Assembly: GCA_030390025.1 (NCBI GenBank)
Contig: JASTWF010000033.1
Span: forward strand, 2,048,001 to 2,112,000
Length of the DNA: 64,000 bases
Source of the DNA: Squalus acanthias
Taxonomy: Eukaryota
Direction of reading: 5' to 3'
Part shown: one piece after another, positions 1 to 54,286 of the stretch
How the letters are laid out: every line of letters begins with the position of its first letter
Numbering within the stretch: position 1 is the first letter of the stretch
The notes under the pieces: generated by a model
What the model was told of the DNA's origin: nothing
Databases searched by the model: none
The model's input: only the letters and a program-made list of their open reading frames with translations
Translations under genes and position numbers: made by a program

Positions 1-340
1 GGCTCAATGGGACCTTCCCATTGCTCGTCAAACAAATCCTTTTGCCGACGGTAACACTGATTCTGGGTGCAATGATCCTCACCCTGGGACACAGTAAATA
101 AGTCTCTTTGTAGGCAAATCCGGATGCGCTGGAGTATTCCGTCGAATTCGTTCCCAGCCATCCCGGCCACCTTCCCTTGTGGAAATAAGTGGCGGTTTCC
201 TCAGCCTTTCGCTCCCCGGTCCCATCCATCGTGATGGGGCCCGTGTCCCCGGAGCAACCGAACACAACGACATCCTTGGTGAGGCCCCGATAGGCCAATC
301 CATATCCGATCGTTGCGAGCACTATCAGAATCCTTTCCAT
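1..340 (-). CDS. env-like glycoprotein, N-terminal 113 aa (open to window edge)
   Basis: Manual translation from ATG at 340: MERILIVLATIGYGLAYRGLTKDVVVFGCSGDTGPITMDGTGERKAEETATYFHKGRWPGWLGTNSTEYSSASGFAYKETYLLCPRVRIIAPRISVTVGKRICLTSNGKVPLS, with no stop. It has a hydrophobic signal-peptide-like start, an NST sequon and 3 Cys, and lies downstream of pol. A candidate splice acceptor (ttttatctgatcacAG) ends at 353. Confidence 0.7.
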   Translation of the reverse strand, partial: MERILIVLATIGYGLAYRGLTKDVVVFGCSGDTGPITMDGTGERKAEETATYFHKGRWPGWLGTNSTEYSSASGFAYKETYLLCPRVRIIAPRISVTVGKRICLTSNGKVPLS

Positions 341-609
341 CTTTCCTGGTTCCTGTGATCAGATAAAATGATGTAGCCAGCCTCCCAAGAGTCTCTGGCT
401 TTTGTGAAGCGTGAGCGGGTCCCTTGACCTCGTCTCACGTACAAAGACACGTATGCTGGATAGACCTTAACTATTCCTATCACTAACTCCCATCATTTTA
501 CCATTTACTTTTAAAATTAAACTACAATCTTACCAAACTTAAAACATTATAAACTTAAACTTATCCTAAACGTAACTGTACAGCGCCGCCCGTTCCCAGG
601 GCGGCCTAC

Positions 610-3600
610 CTAAATTCTGTGAAGGCTGCCACGAGCTTTTCCCAGTGGCGGGGGGGCACTGACCCCTTCCATTGATCTGCCGCAGCCTGTCGTCACTGCG
701 CTGGGACTGGGATCTCCCTGGAGTGCCTTGAACTTACGCCTGGGGGTGTACGAGGGATTTGACCACAACTTCCTGGGCTGGGGTGTCCGACTCGACCTAC
801 GGAGGGCTACCTTGGGCAAGATTCCCAGGACCGACGGACCGGGAACCGAGACTTCCACCGTCACGGCCTGTGGTCCCACCACAGCCGCCGGCTCTGTCTC
901 CCCTGGCCCCGCCCCCTGGGCTCGGGACCTGCAGTTTCTGACTCCACCCTACTTGTCTCTCCAGTATGTTGAACTCCACTCACAGTCCCTGTCTCCCCTG
1001 GCCCCGCCCCCTGGGCTCCGCCCCCCTGGCCCCGCCCCCCTGGCCCCGCCCCCTGGGCTCGGGAGCTGCAGTTTCTGACTCCACCCTACTTGTCTGTCCA
1101 GTATGTGGATCTCCACTCACAATCCCTATCTCCCCTGGCCCCGCCCCCCTGGCCCCGCCCCCTGGCCCCGCCCCCTGGGCTCGGGACCTGCAGTTTCTGA
1201 CTCCACCCTACTTGTCTCTCCAGTATGTTGAACTCCACTCGCAGTCCCTATCTCCCCTGGCTCCGCCCCCTGGCCCCGCCCCCCTGGGCTCGGGAGCTGC
1301 GGTTTCTGACTCCACCCTACTTGTCTCTCCAGTATGTGTAACTCCACTCACAATCCCTGTCTCCCCTGGCCCCGCCCCCTGGCTCCGCCCCCCCTGGCCC
1401 CGCCCCCTGGCCCCGCCCCCTGGCTCCGCCCCCTGGCCCCGCCCCCTGGGCTCGGGACCTGTGGTTTCCGACTCCACCCTACTTGTCTCTCCAGTATGTT
1501 GAACTCCACTCACAGTCCCTATCTCCCCTGAGCTTGGGTCGAGGGCGGAACCTCCGTCCTCTGTCCCCACCACCTCTCCGACCGGGTCACTACCTTGGTC
1601 GAGCTCTCCGAGCTCTTCCTCATCTGAATCCCAACACCAAGAAAAGATCCTACACTTTTCCAGAATGTCCTCTCCCCTCAAGCAGGCTGCTTTACCGGCC
1701 TGTGTGCCCTGCGGTTCTACCTGGGGCTGAGAGTCCCCACTCGCAGGTTTGGCCCCTGTGATTGGCCCCTGTGCACCCGGCTTGTACAGCTTGCACTGGT
1801 TAATGTGGAACCATTTCGTGCGCCGGGGTACCTTCACGGCATACACCATGGGACTCGCCTTATCTACAATACTGTGGGGTCCCATATACAGTGGTTCCAA
1901 ACTCCCTACTCTGGCATAGTTCCTAACCATGACCTGATCTCCGACTTCCCACTCCTGCTTCTTACGGGGTTCCAGCAACAGTCGATTGCCCTGATGCTGT
2001 CTTCCCATGTTCCCAGCCGCCTGCTCGTAAACCTGCTTCAGGCGCTCCAAGAGGGTCTGGACAAACTTGTCCTTTTTCACCTTTTGGAGCTGAACCTCAG
2101 TGAGCACCGGGGCTAGTACATGGGTGGGGGTTCGCATGATCCTCCCAGTCATCACCTCGTACAGGGAATACCCCGTACTCTTCGACTGGCTGGCCCGGAT
2201 TCCCATGAGGACTAGAGGCAGAACCACCGCCCATTTTTGGGGCGAGTTCATAGTCTCTTTCCTCAGTTTCTCCTTGAGAGTCCGGTTCATGCGTTCAACA
2301 ATCCCTGATGACTGGGGATTGTGCGCTACGTGCCACTTCCCTTCAATGCCCAAAAGCATGAGGGTGTTCTGCATCACCTGGCCGGTGAACTGACTCCCTT
2401 GGTCTGACTCCACGAAACGGGGGAGTCCCCACCGCGAGAACACTTCCCGGACCAAGATCTTGGCAGTACCCAGCGCCGTAGCTGTTCTACAGGGGAAAGC
2501 TTCTACCCACTTGGAAAACACATCCACCAAGACGAGGCAGTATTTGTAGCCTCCCTGGGTGGTGGGCAGGGGCCCTATGTAATCGATCTGTATCGACTGC
2601 CATGGTCCCTCCACCCTCCTGATGTGCCCCATGTGCACTTTCCTTTTCTGGGGGTCTGGGTTGTTTGCAGCGCACACAAGACAGCTTGCACAGAACTCGC
2701 GGACCTGCTCCCTGAGTCCCGGCCACCATCCTGCCTGCTCTACCCGTTCCCAGGTAACCTCAGGCCCGGGGTGTCCTGCCCCAGGCCCCTCATGAGCCAA
2801 CTGGAGGAATTCCCTCCTGTGCTGCTGCGGCACAATCCACTGTTCCTCGCGGAACAGCATGCCTTCTTTAACGGAGAGGGTTGCCGTACTGTACGGGCCC
2901 TCTACCTGCTTGCCCTCAGTAATCGTTCTGAGAACTACTTTTAGGGCGGGATCCTGGCTCTGGACGGTCTAAAGGTCTAGGGGCAGTGCTACCCTGGTGT
3001 TCCCGGGATTCCCTTCCCTGCCTTGGATCGCTGCCACGGGTCCGGGTCCATAGGGGTCCCAGAAAATGCCGTTACGGGCACCTCCCTGGCTAGCGCATCC
3101 GCCTGCTGGTTGCCCTCCCCGCGGGGTTCTGTGGAGGAGTGAGCCTTCACCTTATGGATGAAAATCTCCCCTTCCTCCCCCACTGCTGCTAGGATCTTTT
3201 CCAGCAAGGGCTTCACCGTTAAAGGTCGTCCGTCCGCGGAGGTGTAGCCACGGCGGGACCAAATGACCAGATATTCCTTACACGAATTGCACGTAAACAT
3301 ACTGTCCGAACTAATCGTGTATGGTGTTGGGAAGATCTCTCGGTGGGTAACTACGTACGCCACCGCAGACAGCCCAGTCTGCTGCGCGCTCATCGTGCTG
3401 GGGAGTTTAATTGCCAAGGCAAGGTTTGCCGCAGGGTCATAAACTCCACACCCTGTGAGTTGTTCGCCAGCGGACACTGTGCTGGAACCATAAACATAAA
3501 TCTCGCGGCCTGTGGGATGTATCCCGGCCCGCAAACCTATGTTGACCTCCCACACGCCTTCCACCGAACACTGGTGGGCTGTCCGGGGTATACCAGGTTG

Positions 3601-5450
3601 GCCGCGAGCCTGGGCTCGCAAAGACCTTTAACTCTAAGATCCATCTGGGAAAGGAGAAGGGTCCAACGCGCAATACGAGTGCTGCTTACGGTCCCATCCT
3701 TAATCCTCCCATCCAGAAGCATCTTGGTTGGCGTGTGATGGGTGAGGAGAATGATGGGAGTGAGCCCTGTGAAGATCGCTGATCTTTTCACAGCCCAATG
3801 CGTGGCTAAAAGATGCCTCTCGCAGTTGGAAAAACTCCTCTCCACATCCGTTAACACCCTGGACGAATAGACAACCGGCCTCAGCTTGCCGTGACGCTCT
3901 TGGAGCAGCACAGCGCTCAAGCTGTCTCCGCTGGCAGCTACCTCCAGGAAAAACTCCTCCCCCCAGTCTATGGCCCCTAAAGCTGGCGCGGTCTGCAGAT
4001 CCCTTTTTAACTTCTCGAATACTGCCTGACAGCCCTCGTCCCAAGACCACTACACTCCCTTATGGAGGAGTCGGAGCAGCGGAGCTGCTGTGGCCGCATA
4101 GTCCTCGATGAAGTCTCTACAGTATCCGGTCAGTCCCAGAAAGGACCTCACACCCGTTATGGTGTTGGGAATCGGTAACTCCTGCACCGACTCCCTCCTA
4201 GCCTTATCTATGGCTCTTTCCCCAGCGCGAATGGTCAGACCCAGGAATTTTACTTCCTGCTGACCGATCCGTGCTTTCTTAGGGTTAACTTTAAAACTCT
4301 TTCTCGCTAGCAGCTCCAATAACTCGGCTAGCAGTGGTCCATGCTCCTCCCTTGAGTCCGTGAACAGGAGCAAATCATCCACGTGCTGCACTATCTGATT
4401 GGGCTGATTAAACTCCTTTAAACTTCCTGCCATACACTGATGGAAAATACTGGGGCTGTTGTGAAAACCCTGTGGCAAACAGTTCCATGTGTACTGTTGT
4501 CCTTTAAAAGTAAAGGCAAACTTGTACTGGTCCTCTCGCCGCAGCGGGATGGACCAAAAACCGTTCGAGATATCCAGAACCGTGAACGTGGTCGCGGATG
4601 CTGGGATACTCCCTATTAGGTCAGCAACTGCTGCTACTGTAGACGCGCAGGCAGGGATGTTACTGTTAAGGACTCTGTAGTCCACCGTGGCCCTCCACGA
4701 ATTATCCGGCTTCCTTACCGGCCATAATGGGGAGTTCACGTGTGTGGCTATCGGCCTCAACACGCCCTGCTGCACCAATGAGGACATTGCTGTCTCCATA
4801 TGGGGTTCTGCTTCTTTGGGGAAGTTATACTGCTTTTGGGGCCGGATCATGGGGTCCCCGTCTATGCTGACCTCAAACCCGGTAACCCTCCCACAATCGT
4901 GCTTGTGGGTTGCAAATGCGTGCATATTATCTGACACGTACGTTTGCATGTCCGTTGGGACATCCGCGAACATAAGCCTGAGGTCGTAACCTCCGGATGG
5001 CTTCATGGTACATAGGGCCCCTTTACCTTCCTTCCCCGGGATTACAACTACCTTGCCTTTCCCACCCTTGGCTCCCCAGAGACAGTGATTCCTAAGGTCC
5101 ACGAGGATCCCGTGTTCCGCTAGGAGATCCGATCCGAGGATACCTCTGCCACCCCCCTCTTGCCATTTCATCAGTATGCACTTCCATGTGGTGTGGAGTT
5201 CTCCTAAATGAATGGAGAGCGGAATGGAGAACGCGCCAGCCTGCTCTTTTCCCGTGAACCCCGCTAATGTGAATGGGACCTTGGTAGACAGTGGTGAGTC
5301 AAAGGGGCTATCCATTAGGATCACGGTGCATGAAGCTCCCGTGTCCAACAAGTAACTACCCTTCTGCTTCTCTACCTCCATCTCCACCAGGGGTCTTTTC
5401 CACGCATCATAGCTGAGCGGACACAGGTAAACTGGCTGCGCGGGCTTTAG
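610..5450 (-). pseudogene. pol: pro-pol (protease, RT, tether/RNase H-like, RNase H, integrase), disrupted
   Basis: Protease LLDTGA; RT LDISNGF, LPQGFHNSP and HVDD (YxDD altered); first RH fold SAVLLQ..RPVVYSSR..ERHLLA; second RH fold YVYGSS..SDS..HKVKAH..GNQQADALA; integrase HHCC, IDYIGP, SDQGSQF, ERMN. In-frame TAG at 4050-4052, frameshifts near 3580 and 3085, stop near 2968. Tail ORF 610-882 has an LRRSSRTPQP motif typical of integrase tails. Confidence 0.92.
896..1530. repeat. Composite GC-rich tandem repeat (5 copies of a ~110-160 bp unit with GGGGCGGGGC boxes) inside the integrase C-terminal tail
   Basis: The core CTCCACCCTACTTGTCT recurs at ~942, 1079, 1201, 1309 and 1472, separated by variable numbers of CCCTGGCCCCGCCCC subunits. 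Confidence 0.95.
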
Positions 5451-7224
5451 TCATTGGGTACTGGTGGACGGGGTTGTGGCATCTGTGGGGCCGGTAACGA
5501 CTGCCACCCTCCCGTGCGAAATCATAAGGGACCGCATGGCTCCCAACATTGATTCTATCGCATCGGGATGGATAGGCACACCAGCTCCTTTCTCAGAGAC
5601 AGGCGCTTGGGTTCGGACTGCGGGAGCTTTGTTCCTGGAGTCCTTCCAGGGATTCCTGCAGTTTTTACGCCAGTGACCTGTCTTCCCGCACCCGTAACAA
5701 ACACCACTGGTTTGTGGGGCGCGATTTCGCTCCTGATGCCACTCTTTCTGAGCCGGAGCTGCGGGCTTTGCCTCATGCACCTTTCCCTTAAGGGGACGCG
5801 CTCCCATGCTCCTAGTGTTCCGATACCATATGGTGAGTCGATTCAGGACAGACTCCTCCGTTGTGGCGGGGTTAGTGGCAAGCTGTTGGCTACCATGCAC
5901 CTGAGCCAATGAGCTTTCCCGGCGCCGTCCAGGTAGTGGCGCGCTGGCGCACCTGGGCAGCTACGCTGGTATACTGGCCACAGTCTGGCGGCGAAAACCC
6001 GCGGGGGTTCTCCCTCCATCTGTACGGTCTGACCCAATCTGACGAATGGATCTTCGTCATCCGCCCCTAACACTTCTTGGACCTCGTCCCGTAACTCCCC
6101 ATAGGTTTTATTTCCCTTCTTGGTCTCATCGGAGAGACACTGAAGGATCGAGCTATCTAAAGAGAACAGCAACATTTTGGTCTTTTCCTCGTCGTCGCTG
6201 CCATTAATTGCTGCGGTCTGTTCTACTTCCCTAAAATGTACGGAAGGGTCTTCTGACTCGGACAGCTTCCGTACATGGCTAGTCATTGCTCTCAGCTGGT
6301 GTGAGCTGTGGGGCAATACAAGTTGGTTCAGGATATCCCCGTCTGCCCCATTTGCCCCATTCGGGCCTCTCTTGTGACCTCGGAGCGGACACATCGGTCC
6401 CGGTCTCGACGTTACCTCCGGGGATTGTCCTACCTCGGGAACCTTCTTCTCTATTTCCACCACTTCCTCCCTTACCCAGGTTGCCGAATAGCTGGGTGGC
6501 GCGGAGGGCATAGTGGCAGATACCTCTTCTGCTTTTTCCGGTAGGGATTTTGGGAAATCCCTACCCGCCTGTGGCTGGCTCGCTGACGGGCTGATGAGAC
6601 ACACCAAGCCGTTTGCCTTATTCAGGGCCTCTCTTAGGTTCCCTATCTCCTTCTGGCAAACACTGTGGTCGGCTCCTCGAGAGCCATCTTGTATGCCGCC
6701 CTAACTCCCTTCAAGCTTTCTTCCTGGGCTTTTATCTGGCTAGCTAGGCGGATACACCGTTCTCTAATCCTGCCCTCGTTTAATTTTGCTTCCGTGACCT
6801 GACATTCTAGGTCATCAATTTTAGCCTCATGGTGGTTGGCTACTATTTGGCGTTCCTGATGTAACGCATTCAATGACACAATGAGTTTCTGTCCTCCCGT
6901 GACCTTTTCCTCCATCTCAACTTCCAATTCCCTGATCTGAGCTGCCTGTGCTGCAATGACCTGCTCCGAAAGTTGGACTTGCTTCTTGTAGCACATCAGC
7001 CAGACCGCTTTCTCTACCGACTTCTTATGATCTTTACTGCCTGTCCATTTGATGGCGGCGTCTAGCGGTCGCGTATCCATCAGTAGGTCACTTATCCACT
7101 TTTTGGTTAAGTTAACCTTCCCAAACACATAGTCGGCTACCCTCTCATCCATCACATTTCGCCTATTCAAACCAGGGTCTAAAACATTACTCTCCTGCTG
7201 CCAGAGTCCTGCCGCGGTCTCCAT
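5451..7224 (-). pseudogene. gag: gag, split by two frameshifts (~6660, ~5900): coiled-coil N-terminus, capsid-like middle, single CCHC zinc knuckle
   Basis: ORFs 6643-7224 (heptad-rich QIRELEVEMEEK..KIDDLECQV), 5843-6607 and 5451-5909 (CYGCGKTGHWRKNC), located between the LTR and the protease. Confidence 0.85.
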
Positions 7225-7228
7225 TTTC

Positions 7229-8895
7229 TGAAAGGGGGCGTGTCTCAGACGGTGCTGGTGCGAGGTTAGGCCTTCGTTGCCTAATACTATTGCTTGCTCT
7301 GGTATCCGGCCAGCCTTTTTGCAATAAGCACCTGTTAGTGGTTCGACCCACTCGCCCTTACGGTTCTAACACTGGACTTAGGTGCAAGGAGCAGTAATGC
7401 AGAGAAAACTCAAATAGACCCTGTTGAATAGTACGAAATGGAAATCTTTATTGCATGGCGTCTAAAATCATTAAGTACATGTCATAGGCGCAAATCAACG
7501 AGAGTACAAGTATACATACATTCATAAAGCTTGGTCTATGGAAATGAAGAACACACGGCACATCGTAAAAAGGGGAACATATTATACCTTAACCTTATTA
7601 AAAACCACCCTCACTTAACAATACCTACATTACGTCTAGATTTGTAGGATCGAAAAACATGCTCACCACTCCTGTTACTTCGGAGATTTTTAAAGTGAGG
7701 CACTCAGCTCGTTTCGCTGCAGCGCCTGACTGTCACGTGTTTGGAAGGGTCTCTGCACCCCACTTGTTTACTTTCGCTGCTGCGAAAAGCAGGCCAGACT
7801 CTCTGTTGTCATGAAGAACTCGGCAGAACTCGGAACGTTTGTAAAATTCAAAGAAGAGGCTTCCTGTGCTCGAAACAGGTTGTAGTCGGTAGAACTCAAA
7901 GAAGAGTTCTTTATTTATATTTACGGGCGCGGTCGGGGTTTACTGACCGTGGCGGCACGTGGATTCTTCTCGTCTTCTTCTCGTCTCATCTCTTCAGGCC
8001 TCCAGGTCCAGACACCATTTACCGACACTCGGGAAGGTGTACCCTGTTACTTGCCCTTGTCGGGGTGGCTCGTTCCGATTGAGCTGCACCCAACATTCGA
8101 ATAACCGACCAGTACGGCTTAGAGTCAAGAGTCAACAAAGTCCAGAGAAACACAAAGTCCAGCCCTAAGGAAAAGCTTCAGCAAGGATCTACCGAGAGAT
8201 AAGAGCCAGCCGGGAGAATAAGAGTTCAGCAGTCAGCAGCGAGATAAGAGACCGATGGACATTTGTTCTCTATAGTTATAGTGATGTGTCCCCTTATCTC
8301 CCGCTCAAATCTTAATGTTTGTCCTTTGTGTAATATTGGCGCACAAAACTCCCAGCATGGGGCGATTCTTTTCTTTAACGGGTTTCGGTAGCACCTGAAA
8401 CTGGCCAACCAGCCATTAATGTCTTCCCCATTGTTAACCAGCCAGGATGTGTATGAATCGTCTCCCTTACTGGTTTTGGGGCCTCCCCGAATATTGACTT
8501 AATCACCCGTCAATGTCTCTCTCATTGTAGAGCCGTGGTGGTATTTGTGTATTGGTATGTCTGGATGGGCCTTCAATTGCCCAGTACAATGGTCCATACT
8601 GTGAATAGGAAAACGATTCCAGCACTTATATCTTTGCTATTGTTCCAAATGCAACGGGTTGCATCCTGTCTTTATCAGTGTTTACCGAGTATGATCCAAT
8701 TTTTTACTGATTGTTTCTTCGACGCCATCTTGTCTGCTCACTGTTTTTCTGGAAGCTTCTGCCACGATGCGCGGCGGCCATTTTACAGGCTTCTGTGTCA
8801 TTTATTATCAGGACAGCAATTTGTTTAATAAAACTGATCAAACGAATCTGCTTCTCTCTTGTTATTTTGAATCGCGATAATTGCGAAACTTTACA
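7229..8895 (-). repeat. 5' LTR (~1.67 kb) of the provirus
   Basis: The minus strand begins TGTAAAG and ends CTTTCA. It shows colinear block homology over its whole length with the TSD-bounded solo LTR 54896-56527. AATAAA (minus) at 7447-7452; TATAACTATA (minus) at 8271-8280. Confidence 0.88.
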
Positions 8896-8904
8896 GATTG
8901 GCGG

Positions 8905-24812: not shown

Positions 24813-27800
24813 CTCCTCCCCACCCCACCTAATATCCTCAGCTCCTCCCCACCCCACCTAATATCCTCAGCTCCTCCCCACCCCACCTAATATCCTCAGC
24901 TCCTCCCCACCCCACCTAATATCCTCAGCTCCTCCCCACCCCACCTAATATCCTCAGCTCCTCCCCACCCCACCTAATATCCTCAGCTCCTCCCCACCCA
25001 CCTAAAATCCTCAGCTCCTCCCCACCCCGCCTAATATCCTCAGCTCCTCCCCACCCCACCTAATATCATCAGCTCCTCCTCACCCCACCAGATATCCTCA
25101 GCTCCTCCCCACCCCACCTAATATCCTCAGCTCCTCCCCACCCCACCTAATATCCTCAGCTCCTACCCACCCCACCTAATATCCTCAGCTCCTCCCCACC
25201 CCACCTAATATCCTCAGCTCCTCCCCACCCCACCTAATATCCTCAGCTCCTCCCCACCCCACCTAATATCCTCAGCTTTCAACACCCCACCTAATATCCT
25301 CAGCTCCTCTCCACCCCATCTAATATCCTCAGCTCCTCCCCACCCCACCTAATATCCTCAGCTCCTCCCCACCCCATCTAATATCCTCAGACCCTCCCCA
25401 CACCACCTAATATCCTCAGCTCCTCCCCACTCCACCTAATATCCTCAGCTCCTGCCCACCCCATCTAATATCCTCAGCTCCTCCCCACCTCACCTAATAT
25501 CCTCAGCTCCTCCCCACCCCTCCTAATATCCTCAGCTCCTCCTGAACCCACCTCATATCCTCAGCTCCTCCCCATCTAATATCCTCAGTTCCTCCCCACC
25601 CCACCTAATATCCTCAGCTCCTCCCCACCACACCTAATATTCTCAGCTCCTCCCCACCCCACCTAAAATCCTCAGCTCCTCCCCACCTAATATTCTCAGC
25701 TCCTCCCCACCCCACCTAATATCCTGAGCTCCTCCTGAACCCACCTAATATCCTCAGCTCCTCCCCACCCCATCTAATATCCTCAGCTCCTCCCCACCCC
25801 ACCTAATATCCTCAGCTTCTCTCCACCCCACCTAATATCCTCAGCTCCTCCCCACCCCACCTAATATCCTCAGCTTCTCTCCACCCCACCTAATATCCTC
25901 AGCTTCTCTCCACCCCACCTAATATCCTCAGCTCCTCCCCACCCAACCTAATATCCTCAACTCCTCCCCACCCCACCTAATGACCTCAGCTCCTCCCCAC
26001 CCCACGTAATATCCTCAGCTCCTCCTGAACCCAACTAATAACCTCGGCTCCTCCCCACCCCACCCAATATCCTCAGCTCCTCCTGAAATCACCTAATATC
26101 CTCAGCTCCTCCACACCCCATCTAATATCCTCAGCTCCTCCCCACAGCACCGAATATCCTCAGCTCCTCCCCACCCCACCTAATATCCTCAGCTCCTCCC
26201 CACCCCACCTAATATCCTCAGCTCCTCCCCACCCCACGTAATATCCTCAGCTCCTCCTGAACCCACCTAATAACCTCGGCTCCTCCTCACCCCACCTAAT
26301 ATCCTCAGATCCTCCCCACCCCACCAGATATCCTCAGCTCCTCCCCACCCCACCTAATATCCTCAGTTCCCCCCCACCCCACCTAATATCCTCAGCTCCT
26401 CCCCACCCCACCTAATATCCCCAGCTCCTCTGCACCCCATCTAATATTCTCAGCTCCACCCCACCCCACCTAATATCCTCAGCTCCTCCTGAACCCACCT
26501 AATATCTTCAGCTCCTCCCCACCCCACTTAATATCCTCAGCTCCTCCCCACCCCAGCTAATATCCTCAGCTCCTCCCCACCCCACCTAATATCCTCAGCT
26601 CCTCCCCACCCCACCTAATATCCCCAGCTCCTCTCCACCCCATCTAATATTCTCAGCTCCACCCCACCCCACCTAATATCCTCAGCTCCTCCTGAACCCA
26701 CCTATTATCTTCAGCTCCTCCCCACCCCACCTAATATCCTCAGCTCCTCCCCACCCCACCTAATATCCTCAGCTCCTCCCCACCCCACCTAATATCCTCA
26801 GCTCCTCCCCACCCCACCTAATATCCGCAGCTCCTCTCCACCCCATCTAATATTCTCAGCTCCACCCCACCCCACCTAATATCCTCAGCTCCTGCCCACT
26901 CCACCTAATATCCTCAGCTCCTCCCCACCCCACCTAATATCCTCAGACCCTCCCCACACCACCTATTATCCTCAGCTCCTCCCCACCCCACCTAATATCC
27001 TCAGCTCCTCCCCACTCAACCTAATATCCTCAGCTCCTGTCCACCCCACCTAATATCCTCAGCTCCTCCCCACTCCACCTAATATCCTCAGCTCCTGCCC
27101 ACCTCACCTAATATCCTCAGCTCCTCCCCACCCCACCTAATATCCTCAGCTCCTCCTGAACCCGCCTCATATCCTCAGCTCCTCCCTATCTAATATCCTC
27201 AGTTCCTCCCCACCCCACCTAATATCCTCAGCTCCTCCCCATCCCACCTAATATTCTCAGCTCCTCCCCACCCCATCTAATATCCTCAGCTCCTCCTGAA
27301 CCCACCGAATATCCTCAGCTCCTCCCCACCCCACCTAATATCCTCAGCTCCTCCTGAACCCACCTAATATCCTCAGCTCCTCCCCACCCCACCTAATATC
27401 ATCAGCTCCTCCCCACCTAATATCCTCAGCTCTGCCTGAACCCACCTAATATCCTCAGGTCCTCCCCACCCCACCTAATATCCTCAGCTCCTCCCCACCC
27501 CACCTAATATCATCAGCTCCTCCCCACCTAATATCCTCAGCTCCTCCTGAACCCACCTAATATCCTCAGCTCCTCCACACCCCACCTAATATCCTCAGGT
27601 CCTCCCCACCCCATCTAATATACTCAGCTCCTCCCCACCCCACCTAATATCATCAGCTCCTCCCCACCTAATATCCTCAGCTCCTCCTGAACCCACCTAA
27701 TATCCTCAGCTCCTCCACACCCCACCTAATATCCTCAGGTCCTCCCCACCCCATCTAATATAAACAGCTTCTCTCCACCCCACCTAATATCCACAGCTCC

Positions 27801-30800
27801 TCCCCACCCCACCTAATGTCCTCAGCTCCTCCCCACCCCAACTAATATCCTCAGTTCCTCCCCACCCCACCTAATATCCTCAGCTCCTCCCCACCCCACC
27901 TCATATTCTCAGCTCCTCCCCAACCCATCGAATATCCTCAGCTCCTCCCCACCGCACCAAATATCCTCAGCTCCACCCCACCCCACCTAATATCCTCAGC
28001 TCCTCCCCACCCCACCTAATATCCTCAGCTCCTCCCAACCCCACCTAATATCTTCAGCTCCTCCCCACCCCACCTAATATCCTCAGCTCCTCCCCACCTC
28101 ACCTAATATCTTCAGCTCCTCCCCACCCCACCTAACATCCTCAGCTCCCCCCCACCCCAACTAATATCCTTAGCTCCTCCCAACCCCACCTAATATCCTC
28201 AGCTCCCCCCACCCCACCTAATATCCTCAGACCCTCCCCACACCACCTAATATCCTCAGCTCCTCCCCACCCCACCTAATATCCTCAGACCCTCCCCACA
28301 CCACCTAATATCCTCAGCTCCTCCCCACCCCACCTAATATCCTCAGCTCCTCCCCACTCCACCTAATATTCTCAGCTCCTGCCCACCCCATCTAATATTC
28401 TCAGCTCCTCCCCACCTCACCTAATATCCTATGCACCTCCCCACCCCACCTAATTTCCTCAGCTCCTCCTGAACCAACCTAATATCCTCAGCTCCTTCCA
28501 CAACCCACAATATCCTTAGTCCTCCCCACCCCACCTAATATCCTCAGTTCCCTTTCACCCCACCTATATCCTCAGCTCTCCCCACCCCACCTAACTCCCC
28601 AGCTCCTCGCTCCCCCACCTAATATCTCAGCTCTCCTCACCCCATCCTAATATCCCAGCTCCACCCCACCCCACCTAATTCCTCAGCTACCTGCCCCACT
28701 CCCACCTATATCCTCAGCTCTCCCCCACCCCACCTATATCCTCAGGCTCCCCTCAACCCACCTAATATCTCAGCTCTCCCCACCCCACCTAATACCTCAG
28801 CTCCTCCCCACCCCACCTAATATCCTCAGCTCCTGCCCACCCCACCTAATATCCTCAGCTCCTCCCCACCACACCTAATATCCTCAGCACCTCCCCACCC
28901 CACCTAATATCCTCAGCTCCTCCTGAACCCACCTAATATCCTCAGCTCCTCCCCATCTAATATCATCAGTTCCTCCCCACCCCACCTAATATCCTCAGCT
29001 CCTCCCCACCCCACCTAATATTCTCAGCTCCTCCCCACCCCACCTAATATCCTCAGCTCCTCCCCACGCCATCTAATATCCTGAGCTCCTCCTGAACCCA
29101 CCTAATATCCTCAGCTCCTCCCCACCCCATCTAATATCCTCAGCTCCTCCCCACCCCATCTAATATCCTCAGCTCCTCCCCACCTAATATCCTCAGCTTC
29201 TCTCCACCACACCTAATATCTTCTGCTCCTCCCCACCGCACCTAATATCCTCAACTCCTCCCCACCCCACCTAATATCCTCAGCTTCTCCCCACCCCACG
29301 TAATATCCTCAGCTCCTCCCCACCCCACCTAATATCCTCAGCTCCTCCTGAACCCACCTAATATCCTCAGCTCCTCCCCACCCCACCTAATATCATCAGC
29401 TCCACCCCACCTAATATCCTCAGCTCCTCCCGACCCCACCTAATATCCTCAGCTCCTACCCACCCCACCTAATATCCTCAGCTCCTCCCCAACCCACCTA
29501 ATATCCTCAGCTCCTCCCCACCCCACCTAATATCCTCAGCTCCTCCCCACCCACCTAATATCCTCAGCTCCCCCCACCCCACCTAATATCCTCAGCTCCT
29601 CCCCACCCCACCTAATATCCTCAGCTCCTCCCCACCCCACCTAATATCCTCAGCTCCTCCCCACCCCACCTAATATCCTCAGCTCTCCCACCCCACCTAA
29701 TATCATCAGCTCCTCCCCACCCCACCTAATATCCTCAGCTCCTCCTAACCCACCTAATATCCTCAGCTCCTCCCCACCCCACCTAATATCCTCAGCTCCT
29801 CCCCACCCCACCTAATATCCTCAGCTCCTCCCCACCCCACCTAATATCCTCAGCTCCTCCCCACCCCACCTAATATCCTCAGCACCTCCCCACCCCACCT
29901 AATATCCTCAGCTCCTCCCCACCCCACCTAATATCCTCAGCTCCTCCCCACCCCACCTAATATCCTCAGCTCCTCCCCACCCCACCTAATATCCCCAGCA
30001 TCCTCGCCACCCCATCTAATATTCTCAGCTCCACCCCACTCCACCTTTTATCCTCAGCTCCTCCCCACCCCACCTAATATCCTCAGCTCCTGCCCACTCC
30101 ACCTAATATCCTCAGCTCCTCCCCACCCCACCTAATATCCTCAGACCCGCCCCACACCACCTAATATCCTCAGCTCCTCCCCACCCCGCCTAATATCCTC
30201 AGCTCCTCCCCACTCCACCTAATATCCTCAGCTCCTGCCCACCCCATCAAATATCCTCAGCTCCTCCCCTCCTCACCTAATATCTTCTGCACCTCCCCAC
30301 CCCACCTAATATCCTCAGCTCCTCCTGAACCCACCTCATATCCTCAGCTCCTCCCCATCTAATATCCTCAGATCTTCCCCACCCCACATAATATTCTCAG
30401 CCCCTCCCCACCCCACCTAATATCCTCAGCTCCTCCCCACCCCATCTAATATCCTGAGCTCCACCTGAACCCACCTAATATCCTCAGCTCCTCCCCACCC
30501 ATCTAATATCCTCAGCTCCTCCCCACCACATCTAATATCCTCAGCTCCTCCCCACCTAATATCCTCAGCTTCTCTCCACCCCACCTAATATCCTCAGCTC
30601 CTCCCCACCGCACCTAATATCCTCAACTCCTCCCCACCCCACCTAATATCCTCAGCTTCTCCCCACCCCACGTAATATCCTCAGCTCCTCCCCACCCCAC
30701 CTAATATCCTCAGCTCCTCCTGAACCCACCTAATATCCTCAGATCCTCCCCACCCCACCTAATATCCTCAGCTCCTCTCCACCCCATCTAATATTCTCAG

Positions 30801-33800
30801 CTCCACCCCACCCCACCTAATATCCTCAGCTCCTGCCCACTCCACCTAATATCCTCAGCTCCTCCCCACCCCACCTAATATCCTCAGACCCTCCCCACAC
30901 CACCTAATATCCTCAGCTCCTCCCCACCTCACCTAATATCCTATGCACCTCCCCACCCCACCTAATATCCTCAGCTCCTCCTGAACCCACCTCATATCCT
31001 CAGCTCCTCCCCATCTAATATCCTCAGTTCCTCCCCACCCCACCTAAAATCCTCAGCTCCTCCCCACCCCACCTAATATTCTCAGCTCCTTCCCACCCCA
31101 CCTAATATCCTCAGCTCCTCCTGAACCCACCTAATATCCTCAGCTCCTCCCCACCCCACCTAATATCATCAGCTCCTCCCCACCTAATATCCTCAGCTGC
31201 TTCTGAACCCACCTAATATCCTCAGCCCCTCCACACCCCACCTAATATCCTCAGCTCCTCCACACCCCATCTAATATCCTCAGCTCCTCCCCACCCCACC
31301 TAATATCCTCAGCTCCTCCCCACCTAATATCCTCAGCTTCTCTCCACCCCACCTAATATCCACAGCTCCTCCCCACCCCACCTAATATCCTCAGCTCCTC
31401 CACACCCCATCTAATATCCTCAGCTCCTCCCCACCTAATATCCTCAGCTTCTCTCCACCCCACCTAATATCCTCAGCTCCTCCCCACCCCACCTAATATC
31501 CTCAACTCCTCCCCACCCCACCTAATATCCTCAGCTCCTCCCCACCCCACGTAATATCCTCAGCTAATCCCCACCCCACCTAATATCCTCAGCTCCTCCT
31601 GAACCCACCTAATATCCTCAGCTCCTCCCCACCACACCTAATATCCTCAGCTCCTCCCCACCTATTATCCTCAGCTCCTCCTGAACCCACCTAATATCCT
31701 CAGCTCCTCCACACCCCACCTAATATCCTCAGGTCCTCCCCACCCCATCTAATATCCTCAGCTCCTCCCCTCCCCACCTAATATCCTCAGCTCCTCCCCA
31801 CCCCACCTAATATCCTCAGCTCCTCCTGAACCCACCTAATATCTTCAGCTCCTCCCAACCCCACCTAATATCCTAAGCTCCCCCCCACCCCACCTAATAT
31901 CCTCAGCTCCTCCTAAACCCACCTAATATCTTCAGCTCCTCCCCACCCCACCTAATATCCTCAGCTCCTCCCCACCCCACCTAATATCCTCAGCTCCTCC
32001 ACACCCCACCTAATATCCTCAGCTCCTCCCCACCCCACCTAATATCCTCATCTCCTCCCCACCCCACCGATATCTTCAGCTCCTCCCCACCCCATCTAAT
32101 ATCCTCAGCTCCTCCCCACCCCACCTAATATCCTTAGCTCCCCCCCACCCCACCTAATATCCTCAGCTCCTCCCCACCCCACCTAATATCCCCAGCTCCT
32201 CTCCACTCCATCTAATATTCTCAGCTCCACCCCACCCCACCTAATATCCTGAGCTCCTGCCCACTCCACCTAATATCATCAGCTCCTCCCCACCCCACCT
32301 AATATCCTCAGACCATCATCACACCACCTAATATCCTCAGCTCCTCCCCACTCCACCTAATATCCTCAGCTCCTGCCCTCCCCATCTAATATCCTCAGCT
32401 CCTCCCCACCTCACCTAATATCCTATGCACCTCCCCACCCCACCTAATATCCTCAGCTCCTCCTGAACCCACCTCATATCCTCAGCTCCTCCACATCTAA
32501 TATCCTCAGTTCCTCCCCACCCCACCTAATATCCTCAGCTCCTCACCACCCCACCTAATATCCTCAGCTCCTCCCCACCCCATCAAATATCCTGAGCTCC
32601 TCCTCAACCCACCTAATATCCTCAGCTCCTCCCCACCCCATCTAATATCCTCAGCTCCTCCCCACCCCATCTAATATCCTCAGCTCCTCCCCACCTAATA
32701 TCCTCAGCTTCTCTCCACCCCACCTAATATCCTCAGCTACTCCCCACCGCACCTAATATCCTCAACTCCTCCCCACCCCACCTAATATCCTCAGCTCCTC
32801 CCCAACCCACGTAATATCCTCAGCTCCTCCCCACCCCACCTAATATCCTCAGCTCCTCCCCAACCAACCTAATATCCTCAGCTCCTCCACTCCCCACCTA
32901 ATATCCTCAGGTCCTCCCCACCCCATCTAATATCCTCAGCTCCTCCCCACCCCACCGAATATCCTCAGCTCCTCCCCACCTAATATCCTCAGCTTCTCTC
33001 CACCCCACCTATTATCCACAGCTCCTCCCCACCCCTCCTAATATCCTCAGCTCCTCCCCACCCCACCTAATATCCTCAGCTCCTCCCCACCCGACCTAAT
33101 ATCCTCAGCACCTCCCCACACCACCTAATATCCTCAGCTCCTCCCCACCCCTCCTAATATCCTCAGCTCCTCCCACACCACCTAATATGCTCAGCTCCTC
33201 CCCACCCCACCTAATATACTCAGCTCCTCCCCACCCCACCTAATATCCTCAGCTCCTCCCCGGCCCTCCTTATATCCTGAGCTCCTCCCCACCCCACCTA
33301 ATATCCTCAGCTCCTCCTGAACCCACCTAATATCCTCAGCTCCTCCCCACCCCACCTAATATCCTCAGCTCCTCCCCACCCCACCTAATCTCCTCAGCTG
33401 CTCCCCGCCCCTCCTAATATCCTCAGCCCCTCCCCACCTAATATCCTCAGCTCCTCCCCACCCCACCTAATATCCTCAGCTCCTCCCCACCCCATCTAAT
33501 ATCCTCAGCTCCTCCCCACCTAATATCTTCAGCTTCTCTCCACCTCAGCTAATATCCTCAGCTCCTCCCCACCCCACCTAATATCCTCAAGTCCTCCCCA
33601 CCCCACCTAATATCCTCAGCTCCTCCCCACCCCACGTAATATCCTCAGCTAATCCCCACCCTACCTAATATCCTCAGCTCCTCCTGAACCCACCTAATAT
33701 CCTCAGCTCCTCCCCACCCCATCTAATATCCTCAGCTCCTCCCCACCCCATCTAATATCCTCAGCTCCTCCTGAACCCACCTAATATCCTCAGCTCCTCC

Positions 33801-34980
33801 CCACCTAATATCCTCAGCTCCTCCTGAACCCACCTAATATCCTCAGCTCATCCCCACCCCACCTAATATCCTCAGCTCCTCCACACCCCACCTAATATCC
33901 TCAGCTCCTCCCCACCCCACCTAATATCCTCAGCTCTTCCACACCCCACCTAATATCCTCAGCTCCTCCCCACCCCACCTAATATCCTCAGCTCCTCCCC
34001 ACCCCACCTAATATCCTCAGCTCCTCCCCACCCCACCTAATATCCTCAGCTCCTCCCCACCCCACCTAATATCCTCAGCTCCTCCCCACCCCACCTAATA
34101 TCCTCAGCTCCTCCCCACCCCACCTAATATCCTCAGCTCCTCCCCACCCCACCTAATATCCTCAGCTCCTCCCCACCCCACCTAATATCCTCAGCTCCTC
34201 CCCACCCCACCTAATATCCTCAGCTCCTCCCCACCCCACCTAATATCCTCAGCTCCTCCCCACCCCACCTAATATCCTCAGCTCCTCCCCACCCCACCTA
34301 ATGTCCTCAGCTCCTCCTGAACCCACCTAATATCCTCAGCTCCTCCCCACCCCACCTAATATCCTCAGCTCCTCCCCACCCCACCAGATATCCTCAGCTC
34401 CTCCCCACCCCACCTAATATCCTCAGCTCCCCCCCACCCCACCTAATATCCTCAGCTCCTCCCCGCCCCACCTAATATCCCCAGCTCCTCTCCACCCCAT
34501 CTAATATTCTCAGCTCCACCCCACCCCACCTAATATCCTGAGCTCCTGCCCACTCCACCTAATATCCTCAGCTCCTCACCACCCCACCTAATATCCTCAG
34601 ACCCTCCCCATGCCACCTAATATCCTCAGCTCCTCCCCACCACACCTAATATCCTCAGCTCCTCCCCACTCCACCTAATATCCTCAGCTCCTCCCCACCC
34701 CACCTAATATCCTCAGCTCCTCCCCACCCCACCTAATATCCTCAGCTCCTCCCCGCCCCTCCTAATATCCTCAGCCCCTCCCCACCTAATATCCTCAGCT
34801 CCTCGCCACCCCACCTAAAATCCTCAGCTCCACCCCACCTCACCTACAATCCTCAGCTCCTCCCCACCCCACCAAATATCCTCAGCTCCTCCCCACCTCA
34901 CCTAATATCCTCAGCTCCTCCCCACCCCACCTACAATCCTCAGCTCCTCCCCAGCTAATAGTCTCAGCTCCTCCCCACCA
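24813..34980. repeat. 29-bp minisatellite array (CTCCTCCCCACCCCACCTAATATCCTCAG)n, ~10.2 kb
   Basis: Directly visible, with recurring variants (CTGAAC, 24-bp deletion units) and a nearly pure stretch at ~33960-34300. Confidence 0.99.
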
Positions 34981-35194
34981 ATGTTTCCTCGAATTTTTTT
35001 GCACTGAGCGGCCATGAACTCCTTTGAGCGACCTTTTCGGCCGTGGGCAAATTTTACAACAACAAATTTTAGAACAACTTTTAGTAAAGCAACTTTTACA
35101 ACAGCGACAGCAACAACAACAACAAGTTAAAATCATATATACAGTAATGAGGTATTCTCACCCCACCGTCTCAAATCATGAGACAATCAGACAA

Positions 35195-40923: not shown

Positions 40924-41660
40924 TGAATGGTGGAATTGGCTGAGTGAGGAATAACCTCCTCCTGTTCCTATGTCACAGGCTCGAGGGGCTGAATGGCCTC
41001 CTCCTGTCCCTATATAACAGGCTCGAGGGGCTGAATGGCCTTTCCTGTTCCTATGTAACAGGCTCGATGGCCTGAATGACCACCTCCTGTTCCTATGTAA
41101 CAGGCTCGAGGGGCTGAATGGCCTCCTCCTGTTCCTATATAACAGGCTCGAGGGGCTGAATGGCCTTTCCTGTTCCTATGTAACAGGCTCGAGGGGCTGA
41201 ATGGCCTCCTCCTGTTCCTAATGTAACAGGCTCGAGGGGCTGAATGGCCTCCTCCTGTTCCTGTGTAACAGGCTCGAGGGGCTGAATGGCCTCCTCCTCT
41301 TCCTATATAATAGGCTCGATGGCCTTTTGACTTCCTCCTGTTCCTATGTAACAGGCTCGAGGGGCTGAATGGCCTCCTCCTGTTCCTATGTAACAGGCTT
41401 AATGGACTGAATGGCCCACTCCCTTTGCTATATACCTGTCTTTAGGATCTTCATGAACTGCTTATTTTCCTACGTAGCAGGCTTGTGGGGTTTAATGGCT
41501 TTGTCCGATGTAACAACCTCGAGGGGTTTAATGGCCTACTCCTGTGCCTATGTAACTCGCTCAAGATTCTGAATTGCCTATTTCATTACGTTTTTAACAG
41601 GCTTGAGGGACTGAATGTCCAATCAATGTTTATATGTAACAGGTTCGATGGGTTGAATGT
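40924..41660 (+). repeat. 42-bp minisatellite derived from the CR1 3' terminus
   Basis: Unit ACAGGCTCGAGGGGCTGAATGGCCTCCTCCTGTTCCTATGTA (period 41101 to 41143) matches the CR1 tail GCAGGCTCGA.GGGCCGAATGGCCT..TCCTGCTCCTAT at ~38370-38410. Confidence 0.9.
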
Positions 41661-44600
41661 CCCGGCCAATATTTATCCCAGGTGTCACAGCCAATATTTA
41701 TCCCCGGTAACCTGGGCCAATATTTATCCCCGGTGTCCTGGGCCAATATTTATCCCCGGTGTCCTGGGCCAATATTTATCCCCGGTGTCCCAGCCAATAT
41801 TTATCCCCAGTGTCCTGGGCCAATATTTATTCCCGGTGTCCCAGCCAATATTTATCCTCGGTGACCTGGGCCAATATTTATCCCCGGTGTCCTGGGCCAA
41901 TATTTATCCCCGGTGACCTGGGCCAATGTTTATTCCCGGTGTCCTGGGCCAATATTTATCCCCGGTGTCCTGTGCCAATATTTATCCTCGGTGACCTGGG
42001 CCAATATTTATCCCCGGTGTCCCGGGCCAATATTTATCCCCGGTGTCCTGGGCCAATATTTATCCCTGGTGTACTGGGCCAATATTTATCCCCAGTGTCC
42101 TGGGCCAATATTTATCCCTGGTGTCCTGGGCCAATATTTATCCCCAGTGTCCTGGGCCAATATTTATCCCCGGTGTCCCGGACAATATTTATCCCCGGTG
42201 TCCTGTGCCAATATTTATCCCCGGTGTCCCGGGCCAATATTTATCCCCGGTGTCCCGGACAATATTTATCCCCGGTGTCCTGGGCCAATATTTATCCTCG
42301 GTGACCTGGGCCAATATTTATTCCCGGTGTCCTGGGCCAATATTTATCCTCGGTGACCTGGGCCAATATTTATTCCCGGTGTCCCGGGCCAATATTTATC
42401 CCTGGTGTCCTGGGCCAATATTTATCGCCGGTGTCCTGGGCCAATATTTATCCCCGGTGTCCTGGGCCAATATTTATCTCCGGTGTCCTGGGCCAATATT
42501 TATCCCCGGTGTCCCGGACAATATTTATCCCCGGTGTCCCGGACAATATTTATCCCCGGTGTCCCGGGCCAATATTTATCCCTGGTGTCCTGGGCCAATA
42601 TTTATCGCCGGTGTCCTGGGCCAATATTTATTCCCGGTGTCCTGGGCCAATATTTAGCTCCGGTGTCCTGGGCCAATATTTATCCCCGGTGTCCCAGCCA
42701 ATATTTATCCTCGGTGACCTGGGCCAATATTTATTCCCGGTGTCCTGGGCCAATATTTATCCTCGGTGACCTGGGCCAATATTTATCCCCGGTGTCCTGG
42801 GCCAATATTTATCCCCGGTGTCCTGGGCCAATATTTATCCCTGGTGTACTGGGCCAATATTTATCCCCAGTGTCCTGTGCCAATATTTATCCAGGGTGTC
42901 CTGGGCCAATATTTATCCCCAGTGTCCTGGGCCAATATTTATCCCCGGTGTCCCGGACAATATTTATCCCCGGTGTCCCGGACAATATTTATCCCCGGTG
43001 TCCTGGGCCAATATTTATCCCCGGTGTCCCGGACAATATTTATCCCCGGTGTCCTGGGCCAATATTTATCCTCGGTGACCTGGGCCAATATTTATCCCCG
43101 GTGTCCTGGGCCAATATTTATCCTCGGTGACCTGGGCCAATATTTATCCCCAGTGTCCTGGGCCAATATTTATCCCTGGTGTCCTGGGCCAATATTTATC
43201 CCCAGTGTCCTGGGCCAATATTTATCCCCGGTGTCCCGGACAATATTTATCCCCGGTGTCCTGGGCCAATATTTATCCCCGGTGTCCCGGGCCAATATTT
43301 ATCCCCGGTGTCCCGGACAATATTTATCCCCGGTGTCCTGGGCCAATATTTATCCTCGGTGACCTGGGCCAATATTTATTCCCGGTGTCCTGGGCCAATA
43401 TTTATCCTCGGTGACCTGGGCCAATATTTATTCCCGGTGTCCCGGGCCAATATTTATCCCTGGTGTCCTGGGCCAATATTTATCGCCGGTGTCCTGGGCC
43501 AATATTTATCCCCGGTGTCCTGTGCCAATATTTATCTCCGGTGTCCTGGGCCAATATTTATCCCCGGTGTCCCGGACAATATTTATCCCCGGTGTCCCGG
43601 ACAATATTTATCCCCGGTGTCCCGGGCCAATATTTATCCCTGGTGTCCTGGGCCAATATTTATCGCCGGTGTCCTGGGCCAATATTTATTCCCGGTGTCC
43701 TGGGCCAATATTTAGCTCCGGTGTCCTGGGCCAATATTTATCCCCGGTGTCCCAGCCAATATTTATCCTCGGTGACCTGGGCCAATATTTATTCCCGGTG
43801 TCCTGGGCCAATATTTATCCTCGGTGACCTGGGCCAATATTTATCCCCGGTGTCCTGGGCCAATATTTATCCCCGGTGTCCTGGGCCAATATTTATCCCT
43901 GGTGTACTGGGCCAATATTTATCCCCAGTGTCCTGGGCCAATATTTATCCAGGGTGTCCTGGGCCAATATTTATCCCCAGTGTCCTGGGCCAATATTTAT
44001 CCCCGGTGTCCCGGACAATATTTATCCCCGGTGTCCCGGACAATATTTATCCCCGGTGTCCTGGGCCAATATTTATCCCCGGTGTCCCGGACAATATTTA
44101 TCCCCGGTGTCCTGGGCCAATATTTATCCTCGGTGACCTGGGCCAATATTTATTCCCGGTGTCCTGGGCCAATATTTATCCTCGGTGACCTGGGCCAATA
44201 TTTATTCCCGGTGTCCCGGGCCAATATTTATCCCTGGTGTCCTGGGCCAATATTTATCGCCGGTGTCCTGGGCCAATATTTATCCCCGGTGTCCTGGGCC
44301 AATATTGATCTCCGGTGTCCTGGGCCAATATTTATCCCCGGTGTCCCGGACAATATTTATCCCCGGTGTCCCGGACAATATTTATCCCCGGTGTCCCGGG
44401 CCAATATTTATCCCTGGTGTCCTGGGCCAATATTTATCGCCGGTGTCCTGGGCCAATATTTATTCCCGGTGTCCTGGGCCAATATTTATCCCCGGTGTCC
44501 TGGGCCAATATTTATCTCCGGTGTCCTGGGCCAATATTTATCCCCGGTGTCCCGGACAATATTTATCCCCGGTGTCCTGGGCCAATATTTATCCTCGGTG

Positions 44601-53600: not shown

Positions 53601-54285
53601 AATTTCACAGAATCCCCACAATGCAGATAGAGGCCATTTCGGCCCATCGAGCCTGCACCGACACATATCCCACCCTATCCCCGTAACCCTACGTATTTAA
53701 TCCCCCTAACACTAAGGGTCAATTTATCATAGCCAAATCAACCTAACCCGCACATCTTTAGACTGTGGGAATAAACCGGAGCACCTGGAGGAAACCCACG
53801 CAGACACGGGGAGAATGTGCAAACTCCACACAGACAGTCACCCGTGGCCGGATTCGAATCTGGGTCCCTGGCGCTGTGAGGCAACAGTGCTAACCATTAT
53901 GCCACCATGTTGCCCAGCCAATATTTATCCCCGGTGTCCTTGGCCAATACTTATCCCCGGTGTCTTGGACCAATATTTATCCCCGTTGTCCCATGCAATA
54001 TTTATCCCCGGTGTCCCAGCCAATATTTATCCCCGGTGTCCCTGCCAATATTTATCCCCGGTGTCCTGGGCCAATATTTATCCCCGGTGTCCTGGGCCAA
54101 TATATATCCCCGGTGTCCTGGGCCAATATTTATCCCCGGTGTCCTGGGCCAATATTTATCCCCGGTGTCCTGGCTAATATTTATCCCCGGTGTTCTGTGC
54201 CAATATTTATCCCCGGTGTCCTGGGCCAATATTTATCCCCGGTGTCCTGGGCCAATATTTATCCCCGGTGTCCTGGGACAATATT
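41660..54285. repeat. 25/26-bp minisatellite array (GGCCAATATTTATCCCCGGTGTCCTG)n, ~12.6 kb, with higher-order duplications
   Basis: Directly visible. The ORF track shows recurring near-identical blocks offset by 1058, 2060, 1791 and 229 bp. Confidence 0.99.
53596..53915 (-). mobile_element. HE1-like V-SINE (tRNA-derived head, V-domain, CR1-like tail)
   Basis: The minus strand starts GGGCAACATGGTGGC..TGGTTAGCACTG..GATTCGAATCC (A/B boxes), then V-domain GTGTGGAGTTTGCACATTCTCCCCGTGTCTGCGTGGGTTTCC and tail GATGGGCCGAAATGGCCTC. It is flanked by AGCCAATATTT at 53585-53595 and 53916-53926. Confidence 0.9.
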
Positions 54286-54286
54286 T

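Follow-up and report, generated by a model that had tools for sequence, protein, structure and literature searches.

Does an open reading frame that stays intact beside damaged neighbours mark an envelope gene that the host has kept? The question arises at one edge of a 64,000-nucleotide stretch of the Squalus acanthias genome (hereafter the window; contig JASTWF010000033.1, positions 2,048,001 to 2,112,000). There, a preliminary description had noted an uninterrupted env-like frame next to gag and pol genes carrying several lesions, and had raised the possibility of retention or co-option. We consider it highly probable that the minus-strand segment running from position 340 to position 1 is the start of env in a decayed 12.6-kb provirus, that this provirus belongs to a multi-thousand-copy ERV family likely related to snakehead retrovirus (SnRV), and that the copy is not kept by the host.

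The frame itself is as first described. A minus-strand ATG at positions 340-338, in the strong context AAGATGG, opens 113 stop-free codons up to the window edge, and the translation begins MERILIVLATIGYGLA... The start resembles a signal peptide, both in hydropathy (about 2.2 over 11 residues at Env residues 4-15) and in pattern, and the NST sequon is present at 148-140. The frame was also said to be absent from the list of open reading frames; this holds for the default list, only because the frame is open-ended at the window edge, and it appears once open ends are allowed. A frame of 113 open codons occurred in 92 of 20,000 shuffles in the given frame, and this rarity argues that it is a real coding frame. 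In the family, at least 113 open codons were found in 36 of the 39 other copies that best match the window, and in all 19 copies with a located start among 20 sampled from chromosome 1 (taken in even steps through the first 100 listed on contig C1). The whole 783-aa Env is present in five of these 39 best matches and in eight of the 20 sampled copies, so 113 open codons are normal for the family. At the rate of damage seen in gag and pol of the studied copy (six lesions in 5.5 kb), the probability that the first 339 nt would carry none is 0.69.

The assignment to env was upheld by the setting of the frame: it begins the env gene of a provirus with two LTRs, assembled from the window and the adjoining stretch of a 3.7-Gb genome (Table 1). 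Two TG...CA LTRs, a target-site duplication, a primer-binding site and a PPT were all found, and the gene order is gag, pol (PR-RT-tether-RH-IN), env. The Gag coiled coil was recognized from sequence and from weak Pfam matches. The two LTRs are 95.4% identical (K2P 0.046).

Table 1. Features of the studied provirus inside the window (positions counted from the first nucleotide of the window).
Feature	Position	Strand	Evidence or remark
env, 5' 113 codons	2..340	-	Sequence; whole gene about 1.96 kb in the studied copy, mostly past the window edge (contig positions below 2048001)
First strands of a probable Ig-like domain (Env about 88-180)	2..79	-	Weak, agreeing tests
N-glycosylation sequon NST (N65)	140..148	-	Kept in 12 of 13 unbroken copies
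Signal peptide, predicted, residues about 1-16/18	287..340	-	Hydropathy and pattern
Non-coding block before env, 100 nt	341..440	-	92-93 of 100 matches between subfamilies, against 54-87 in neighbouring 100-nt windows
Candidate env splice acceptor CAG/G (AG at 354-353), pyrimidine-rich stretch before	352..375	-	Conserved
Tandem expansion, 137-bp unit, about 4.8 copies	900..1530	.	Within the extension after integrase
pol: protease, RT, tether (RT_RNaseH), second RNase H, integrase	1208..5450	-	Two stops and two frameshifts before the integrase end
gag: N-terminal coiled coil, one CCHC knuckle, two frameshifting deletions	5451..7224	-	Ends with TGA in frame with pol (TGA-CTA)
Primer-binding site	7204..7223	-	Complementary at 19 of 20 positions to tRNA-Arg(TCG) of the genome (3' end with CCA added)
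5' LTR, 1,667 bp, TG...CA	7229..8895	-	3' LTR outside the window
4-bp target-site duplication AATC	8896..8899	-	Second copy after the 3' LTR, outside the window

Several details of this anatomy can be recorded. The stop of gag is TGA in all 33 copies with a matched junction among the 40 copies examined; its context, UGA-CUA (window 5445-5453, minus strand), is the type II readthrough context of alphaviruses, and does not appear among the retroviral contexts given in the accessible part of PMC13517186. The first in-frame ATG of gag overlaps the primer-binding site, which begins 5 nt past the LTR end (window 7204-7228, minus strand). After integrase, Pol continues into an acidic, Pro/Gly-rich extension (window 600-1760, minus strand) that is retained in copies devoid of pol and tandemly expanded in the studied copy. 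Judged by eye, the provirus is flanked by apparent CR1/L2-type LINE endonuclease and RT frame fragments (L011:700-6200). Elsewhere in the window, two long uniform blocks of skewed composition (25000-35000, with a GC skew of about -0.85, and 41000-55000) are probably satellite arrays, and at another locus (L054, on C26 at about 40.5-40.9 Mb) genes for tRNA-Arg and tRNA-Ser are arrayed in tandem over a long stretch, with a period of 1,623 bp.

The preliminary description had named beforehand a result that would count against its proposal, namely a frame stopping shortly beyond the window. Extended into the adjoining stretch, the env frame of the studied copy ends at 202 aa, 89 codons past the edge, so that the difference between an uninterrupted env and lesioned gag and pol holds inside the window and disappears outside it. 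Relative to an unbroken natural copy (L017, 96.5% identical), env has lost 391 nt at codon 185, through a deletion whose junction occurs once in the genome, and carries single-base indels at codons 462 and 602. The furin site, fusion peptide and TM are consequently out of frame with the start. The six lesions in 5.5 kb of gag and pol predict 2.6 in env, against three observed; an unbroken env in a decayed provirus, as expected of a co-opted env, is therefore not what this locus contains. Nor does it display the purifying selection after insertion that co-option would entail: the private env changes of this copy comprise 6 synonymous and 19 non-synonymous, small numbers, divided 1 to 4 over codons 1-184 and 5 to 15 over codons 316-783. 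With about 3.4 non-synonymous sites per synonymous site in env, these changes look near neutral. The copy also lacks one cysteine that is kept in 13 of 13 unbroken copies. Its LTR distance of 0.046 is the largest of the 20 pairs measurable among 40 copies, the other 19 ranging from 0.007 to 0.023, and would correspond to about 10 or about 105 My, depending on which of two rates is applied (PMC7947760; PMC4422223). Retention or co-option was thus not substantiated, and the locus is very likely a dead copy, broken in env three times past the edge and not kept by the host.

From its own start, this copy could yield at most a 202-aa fragment devoid of the fusion machine. Feline Refrex-1 and FeLIX are receptor-blocking decoys, and the locus could be imagined as a co-opted truncated env of the same kind, secreting a signal peptide plus Ig-like arm: the deletion at codon 185 lies right after the Ig-like domain and takes the membrane anchor out of frame, and the ATG, the acceptor and the 5' LTR are still present. 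Against this stand the ratio of private changes in codons 1-184, the loss of an invariant cysteine and the many other copies that likewise stop between codons 116 and 211, and we regard a decoy as highly improbable. Assembly errors that conceal an unbroken env at the true locus would be more surprising still. The contig is a 6.7-Mb piece and not chromosome-scale, and single-base indels make up two of the three lesions; however, the third is a 391-nt deletion, lesion density is in line with that of gag and pol, and LTR divergence and private substitutions independently mark an old copy.

The dead copy is one among many. Exact matches in the genome number 2,545 for an env 20-mer, 902 for the full gag-pol junction, 229 for a junction without pol and 1,361 for the LTR start of the studied copy, with none for control k-mers in any case. 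Seventeen of the 20 copies sampled on C1 belong to sister subfamilies that are 79-85% identical. Across 36 copies, retained after four likely segmental duplicates were dropped, pN/pS in env was 0.11 for variants common to at least three copies and 0.58 for singletons; the corresponding values in pol were 0.07 and 0.41. Between subfamilies, Env dN/dS was 0.10 overall and 0.05 for residues 88-180 (five by eight unbroken copies, 40 pairs). The low values for shared variants and between subfamilies indicate that Env was needed while the family spread. The family Env was thus under purifying selection during spread, and each copy decays after insertion. A need for Env at that stage would fit spread by reinfection.

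One subfamily (L012, L016, L018, L020, L031, L042 and others) lacks pol and keeps gag and env. In place of pol, these copies carry a short filler that shares 36% identity with the Gag coiled coil (at residues 145-217) and probably derives from a related virus. They have a single common junction, but in gag and env trees they are scattered among the full copies, a pattern suggestive of co-packaging and recombination.

The preliminary description had also placed a splice acceptor 12 nt upstream of the ATG. The exon from this candidate would begin at 352, and the CAG/G is present in all 39 contexts obtained from 40 copies as well as in most of the sister subfamily. The candidate site is conserved. 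Among 15 of 32 joints listed for four of seven contig sets guessed to be RNA, searched against a sister copy, none linked the LTR to env, a result that is uninformative either way. The 100-nt block before env, in which one subfamily-A copy was compared with five subfamily-B copies, is better conserved than its surroundings and is likely a cis-acting splice or RNA element, judging from the alignment. In many copies of the majority subfamily (L075-L092), the env frame reaches upstream of the signal peptide by about 53 codons. An in-frame upstream Env leader was nevertheless rejected: acceptor and ATG lie 12 nt apart in one of the subfamilies but 13 nt apart in its sister, which implies that env uses its own ATG, and three copies with a common upstream frame shift have an unbroken Env, so that the upstream part looks dispensable.

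The protein that the unbroken copies encode can be described over its whole length. The 783-aa Env begins with a hydrophobic N-terminus or signal peptide, followed by an arm of about 220 aa and by a core from about residue 238. An R-X-R-R furin site lies at 325-328 in 13 of 13 unbroken copies, and beyond it come long helices, a Cys-rich beta region, a TM at about 735-757 and a short tail. The features of an F-type class I protein (signal peptide, furin site, fusion peptide, two heptad repeats, Cys-rich beta domains and TM) were all found in unbroken copies. A model of the full Env, built from 40 sequences, is of middling quality (pLDDT 60, pTM 0.43). By Foldseek it matched hPIV3 F with an E-value of 6.4e-12, and by VIA it matched Langya virus F with a Z-score of 12.5 (rmsd 5.8 over 322 residues, model range 245-660); fold matches in the viral library include walleye epsilonretrovirus and feline foamy Env. 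The best PDB match of the Env family profile was foamy gp130 (E 0.007). In Pfam, no significant match to Env was obtained, PF00523 (F) included, and searches with single Env sequences by Pfam and by phmmer against the PDB gave nothing significant. Residues of about 244-717 are thus predicted to fold like the F protein of paramyxoviruses and pneumoviruses, in agreement with the earlier guess of such a protein.

The earlier suggestion that the last residues in the window resemble the first strands of an Ig-like domain also proved probable. The domain would span Env residues of about 88-180, and antibody light chains matched residues 93-170 with an E-value of about 0.7. In two homologues, Pfam Ig_3 was matched with E-values of 0.0027 and 0.0085, below the Pfam cut-off. 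A model of the arm domain (pLDDT 36, about 50 in the core) gave a best Foldseek E-value of 4.5e-3, and the 50 rows listed were, by titles and chains, essentially all antibody complexes. In the ESM Atlas, with a skate homologue as query, 10 of the 10 matches that bore a family fell in one Ig clan (scores 0.83-0.84), which is a lead only. The hallmark of Ig domains is a cysteine on strand B, a tryptophan on strand C and D-x-G-x-Y-x-C on strand F, and this pattern was found in Env. A VIA-wide search with the arm domain reached a best Z-score of 6.4, with non-Ig rows and mixed beta sandwiches among the top, and the arm profile had no match in the PDB. An Ig-like fold is therefore probable for this region, with no single test passing a strict threshold. 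An attachment role of the arm might equally well be right or wrong.

The nearest Env homologues, from skate and sawshark, are 60-78% identical, and the 50 homologues collected include proteins from sharks, skates, coelacanth, eel and frogs (names available for 20). In the distant ones that were compared (P0014, P0015, P0020, P0025, P0038, P0040, P0050, P0051 and P0053), what precedes the F core varies: nothing, an Ig-like piece or a Cys-rich piece. By hhalign, no homology was detected between the arm of the family and the arms of three distant Envs. One of the proteins compared, P0050, is a 677-aa Env with many copies in a frog genome. Two sawshark gene models, P0005 and P0006, fuse pieces of the Env family to Niban-like and zinc-finger proteins, through either an annotation artefact or exonization.

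These comparisons bear on whether the arm is Ig at all and, if it is, whether it acts in folding, trimer capping or triggering without binding a receptor. The weak fold scores are in keeping with such a reading, as are the failure of distant arms to align with that of the family and the very low dN/dS of the domain; the Ig region is the most conserved in Env, and variation might be anticipated in a surface that contacts a receptor and is exposed to immune pressure. On the other side, four partly independent tests favour Ig and the Cys...Trp...D-x-G-x-Y-x-C pattern is kept, and some homologues are armless, so that the F core does not need an arm in every lineage. We find a non-Ig or non-binding arm rather doubtful, if far from negligible, and continue with an Ig-like arm as the preferred reading.

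The affinities of the family were sought in its RT. In a hand count over two blocks, with the sequences printed in the PMC7947760 supplement as references and a single lokiretrovirus among them, identity was 61/106 to SnRV, 47 to WDSV, 47 to FFV, 42-43 to MuERV-L and 41 to Loki-Xtr, which places the RT closest to SnRV among the five references counted. In a 41-row RT tree, which contained no named SnRV, loki or foamy sequences, it groups with frog and coelacanth proteins (50-53% identity, clade support 85/89), outside a starred 20-row clade of gamma/epsilon type and outside the Ty3-type rows. No RT relatives were found in viral_contigs. The provirus also has the Gag coiled coil with one CCHC knuckle, the gag and pol genes in one frame split by a stop and the tRNA-Arg primer site of an SnRV-like element. 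SnRV itself has, in addition, accessory ORFs and complex splicing. An arginine primer site was reportedly described for SnRV by Hart et al. in 1996. In the accessible text of three papers, SnRV has a Gag coiled coil, a single knuckle and an in-frame gag-pol stop (PMC2717909; PMC1224870; PMC13517186), and SnRV-like ERVs are recorded in the elephant shark as CmiERV lineage I in the accessible part of PMC4422223. On these sequence comparisons, the family is likely related to SnRV.

Lokiretroviruses were the first candidate, suggested by the dual RNase H and the F-like Env, and were dropped since the RT is unlike that of the printed Loki-Xtr. The element would have been the first of its kind in cartilaginous fish. 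Its F-like Env with an RXRR site, its dual RNase H and its Gag coiled coil all speak for that assignment, as do the nearest Pol proteins, from frog and coelacanth, which are named "NYNRIN-like". In contrast, its RT scores lowest of the five references against Loki-Xtr and highest against SnRV, and has the retroviral motif LPQGF where Loki-Xtr has LPFGY; foamy viruses too have an F-like Env, as do walleye epsilonretroviruses according to the fold search; and the F core of the printed Loki-Xtr Env apparently starts right after the signal peptide. Four peptide motifs of the nearest Pol matches were not found in the loki supplement (PMC7947760), and in the accessible part of the same paper, the Wang and Han screen has none of six cartilaginous-fish genomes positive. 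We therefore consider a lokiretrovirus improbable and retain the relationship to SnRV.

Compared with what the available portions of the SnRV literature report (PMC12193657, PMC2717909, PMC1224870, PMC4977317, PMC4422223), the family is alike in its Gag coiled coil, single knuckle and in-frame stop, and its host falls among the cartilaginous fish in which the SnRV-like clade is already known (PMC4422223). It differs from SnRV, on the same partial record, in the stop (UGA-CUA instead of a UAG readthrough stop), in the Env tail (about 25 aa instead of 136 aa), in an LTR of 1.67 kb and in an env with its own ATG and signal peptide after a candidate acceptor. Lokiretroviruses, as far as the consulted sections of PMC7947760 and PMC9040795 describe them, share gag-pol-env between LTRs with tether and RNase H, and an Env related to paramyxovirus and pneumovirus F with signal peptide, RXKR-type site, fusion peptide, coiled coil and TM (PMC7947760); the family differs in its non-loki RT and in the additional N-terminal Env arm of about 220 aa. 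The paramyxovirus and pneumovirus F proteins (PDB 1ztm, 3rki, 8tvg) resemble the predicted fold of Env 244-717 at 7-15% identity and have in common with it the order F2, furin site, fusion peptide, HRA, beta domains, HRB and TM, but lack the N-terminal arm. Foamy Env gp130 (PDB 8rm1), in the accessible part of PMC11468914, likewise combines an F-like core with an added receptor-binding domain, that of the family being a candidate; the foamy domain is inserted inside domain III, whereas the extra module of the family precedes the core. Unlike the family, foamy viruses have a Gag without a knuckle and express pol separately. F-like retroviral Envs are thus already known from lokiretroviruses and foamy viruses, according to the same portion of PMC11468914. 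Neither an N-terminal Ig arm on an F-like Env nor an F-like Env on an SnRV-like backbone was found in the accessible literature searched.

On the model of how F proteins work, Env would be made from a singly spliced mRNA through the acceptor at 352. Furin cleavage would then yield an N-subunit, composed of the Ig-bearing arm and an F2-like part, and an F1-like subunit anchored in the membrane, and membranes would be fused as the heptad repeats of the trimer refold. In most cases, the F of paramyxoviruses and pneumoviruses relies on a second protein for attachment. The provirus contains no gene for such a protein, and for this reason the arm may, at about even chances, be a built-in receptor-binding module. 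Tentatively, and with the balance slightly against it, we suggest that the true retroviruses of sharks, rays and frogs include a deep branch, akin to SnRV, that has kept an F-type Env and whose lineages have added different binding heads to its N-terminus. In the present family, the head would be an Ig domain, perhaps acquired from a host gene.

The family combines an F-type fusogen with an SnRV-like backbone, so that an F-like Env is no hallmark of lokiretroviruses. There is also a caution for ERV screens, since the Env of this family matches no Pfam family significantly; in one ERV survey, Env had to contain a TM motif and was annotated through a search for conserved domains. The studied locus is by itself unimportant, being one dead copy among thousands. 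The family, however, bears on the origin of retroviral envelopes: a strongly conserved, probably Ig-like module before an F core, the module being present, absent or replaced among relatives, provides a testable model for the addition of a receptor-binding head to a fusion core. If the tentative reading of lineage-specific binding heads is true, the family Env would unite attachment and F in a single-chain entry machine and would illustrate a way in which the SU domains of retroviruses could arise on an F-like ancestor.
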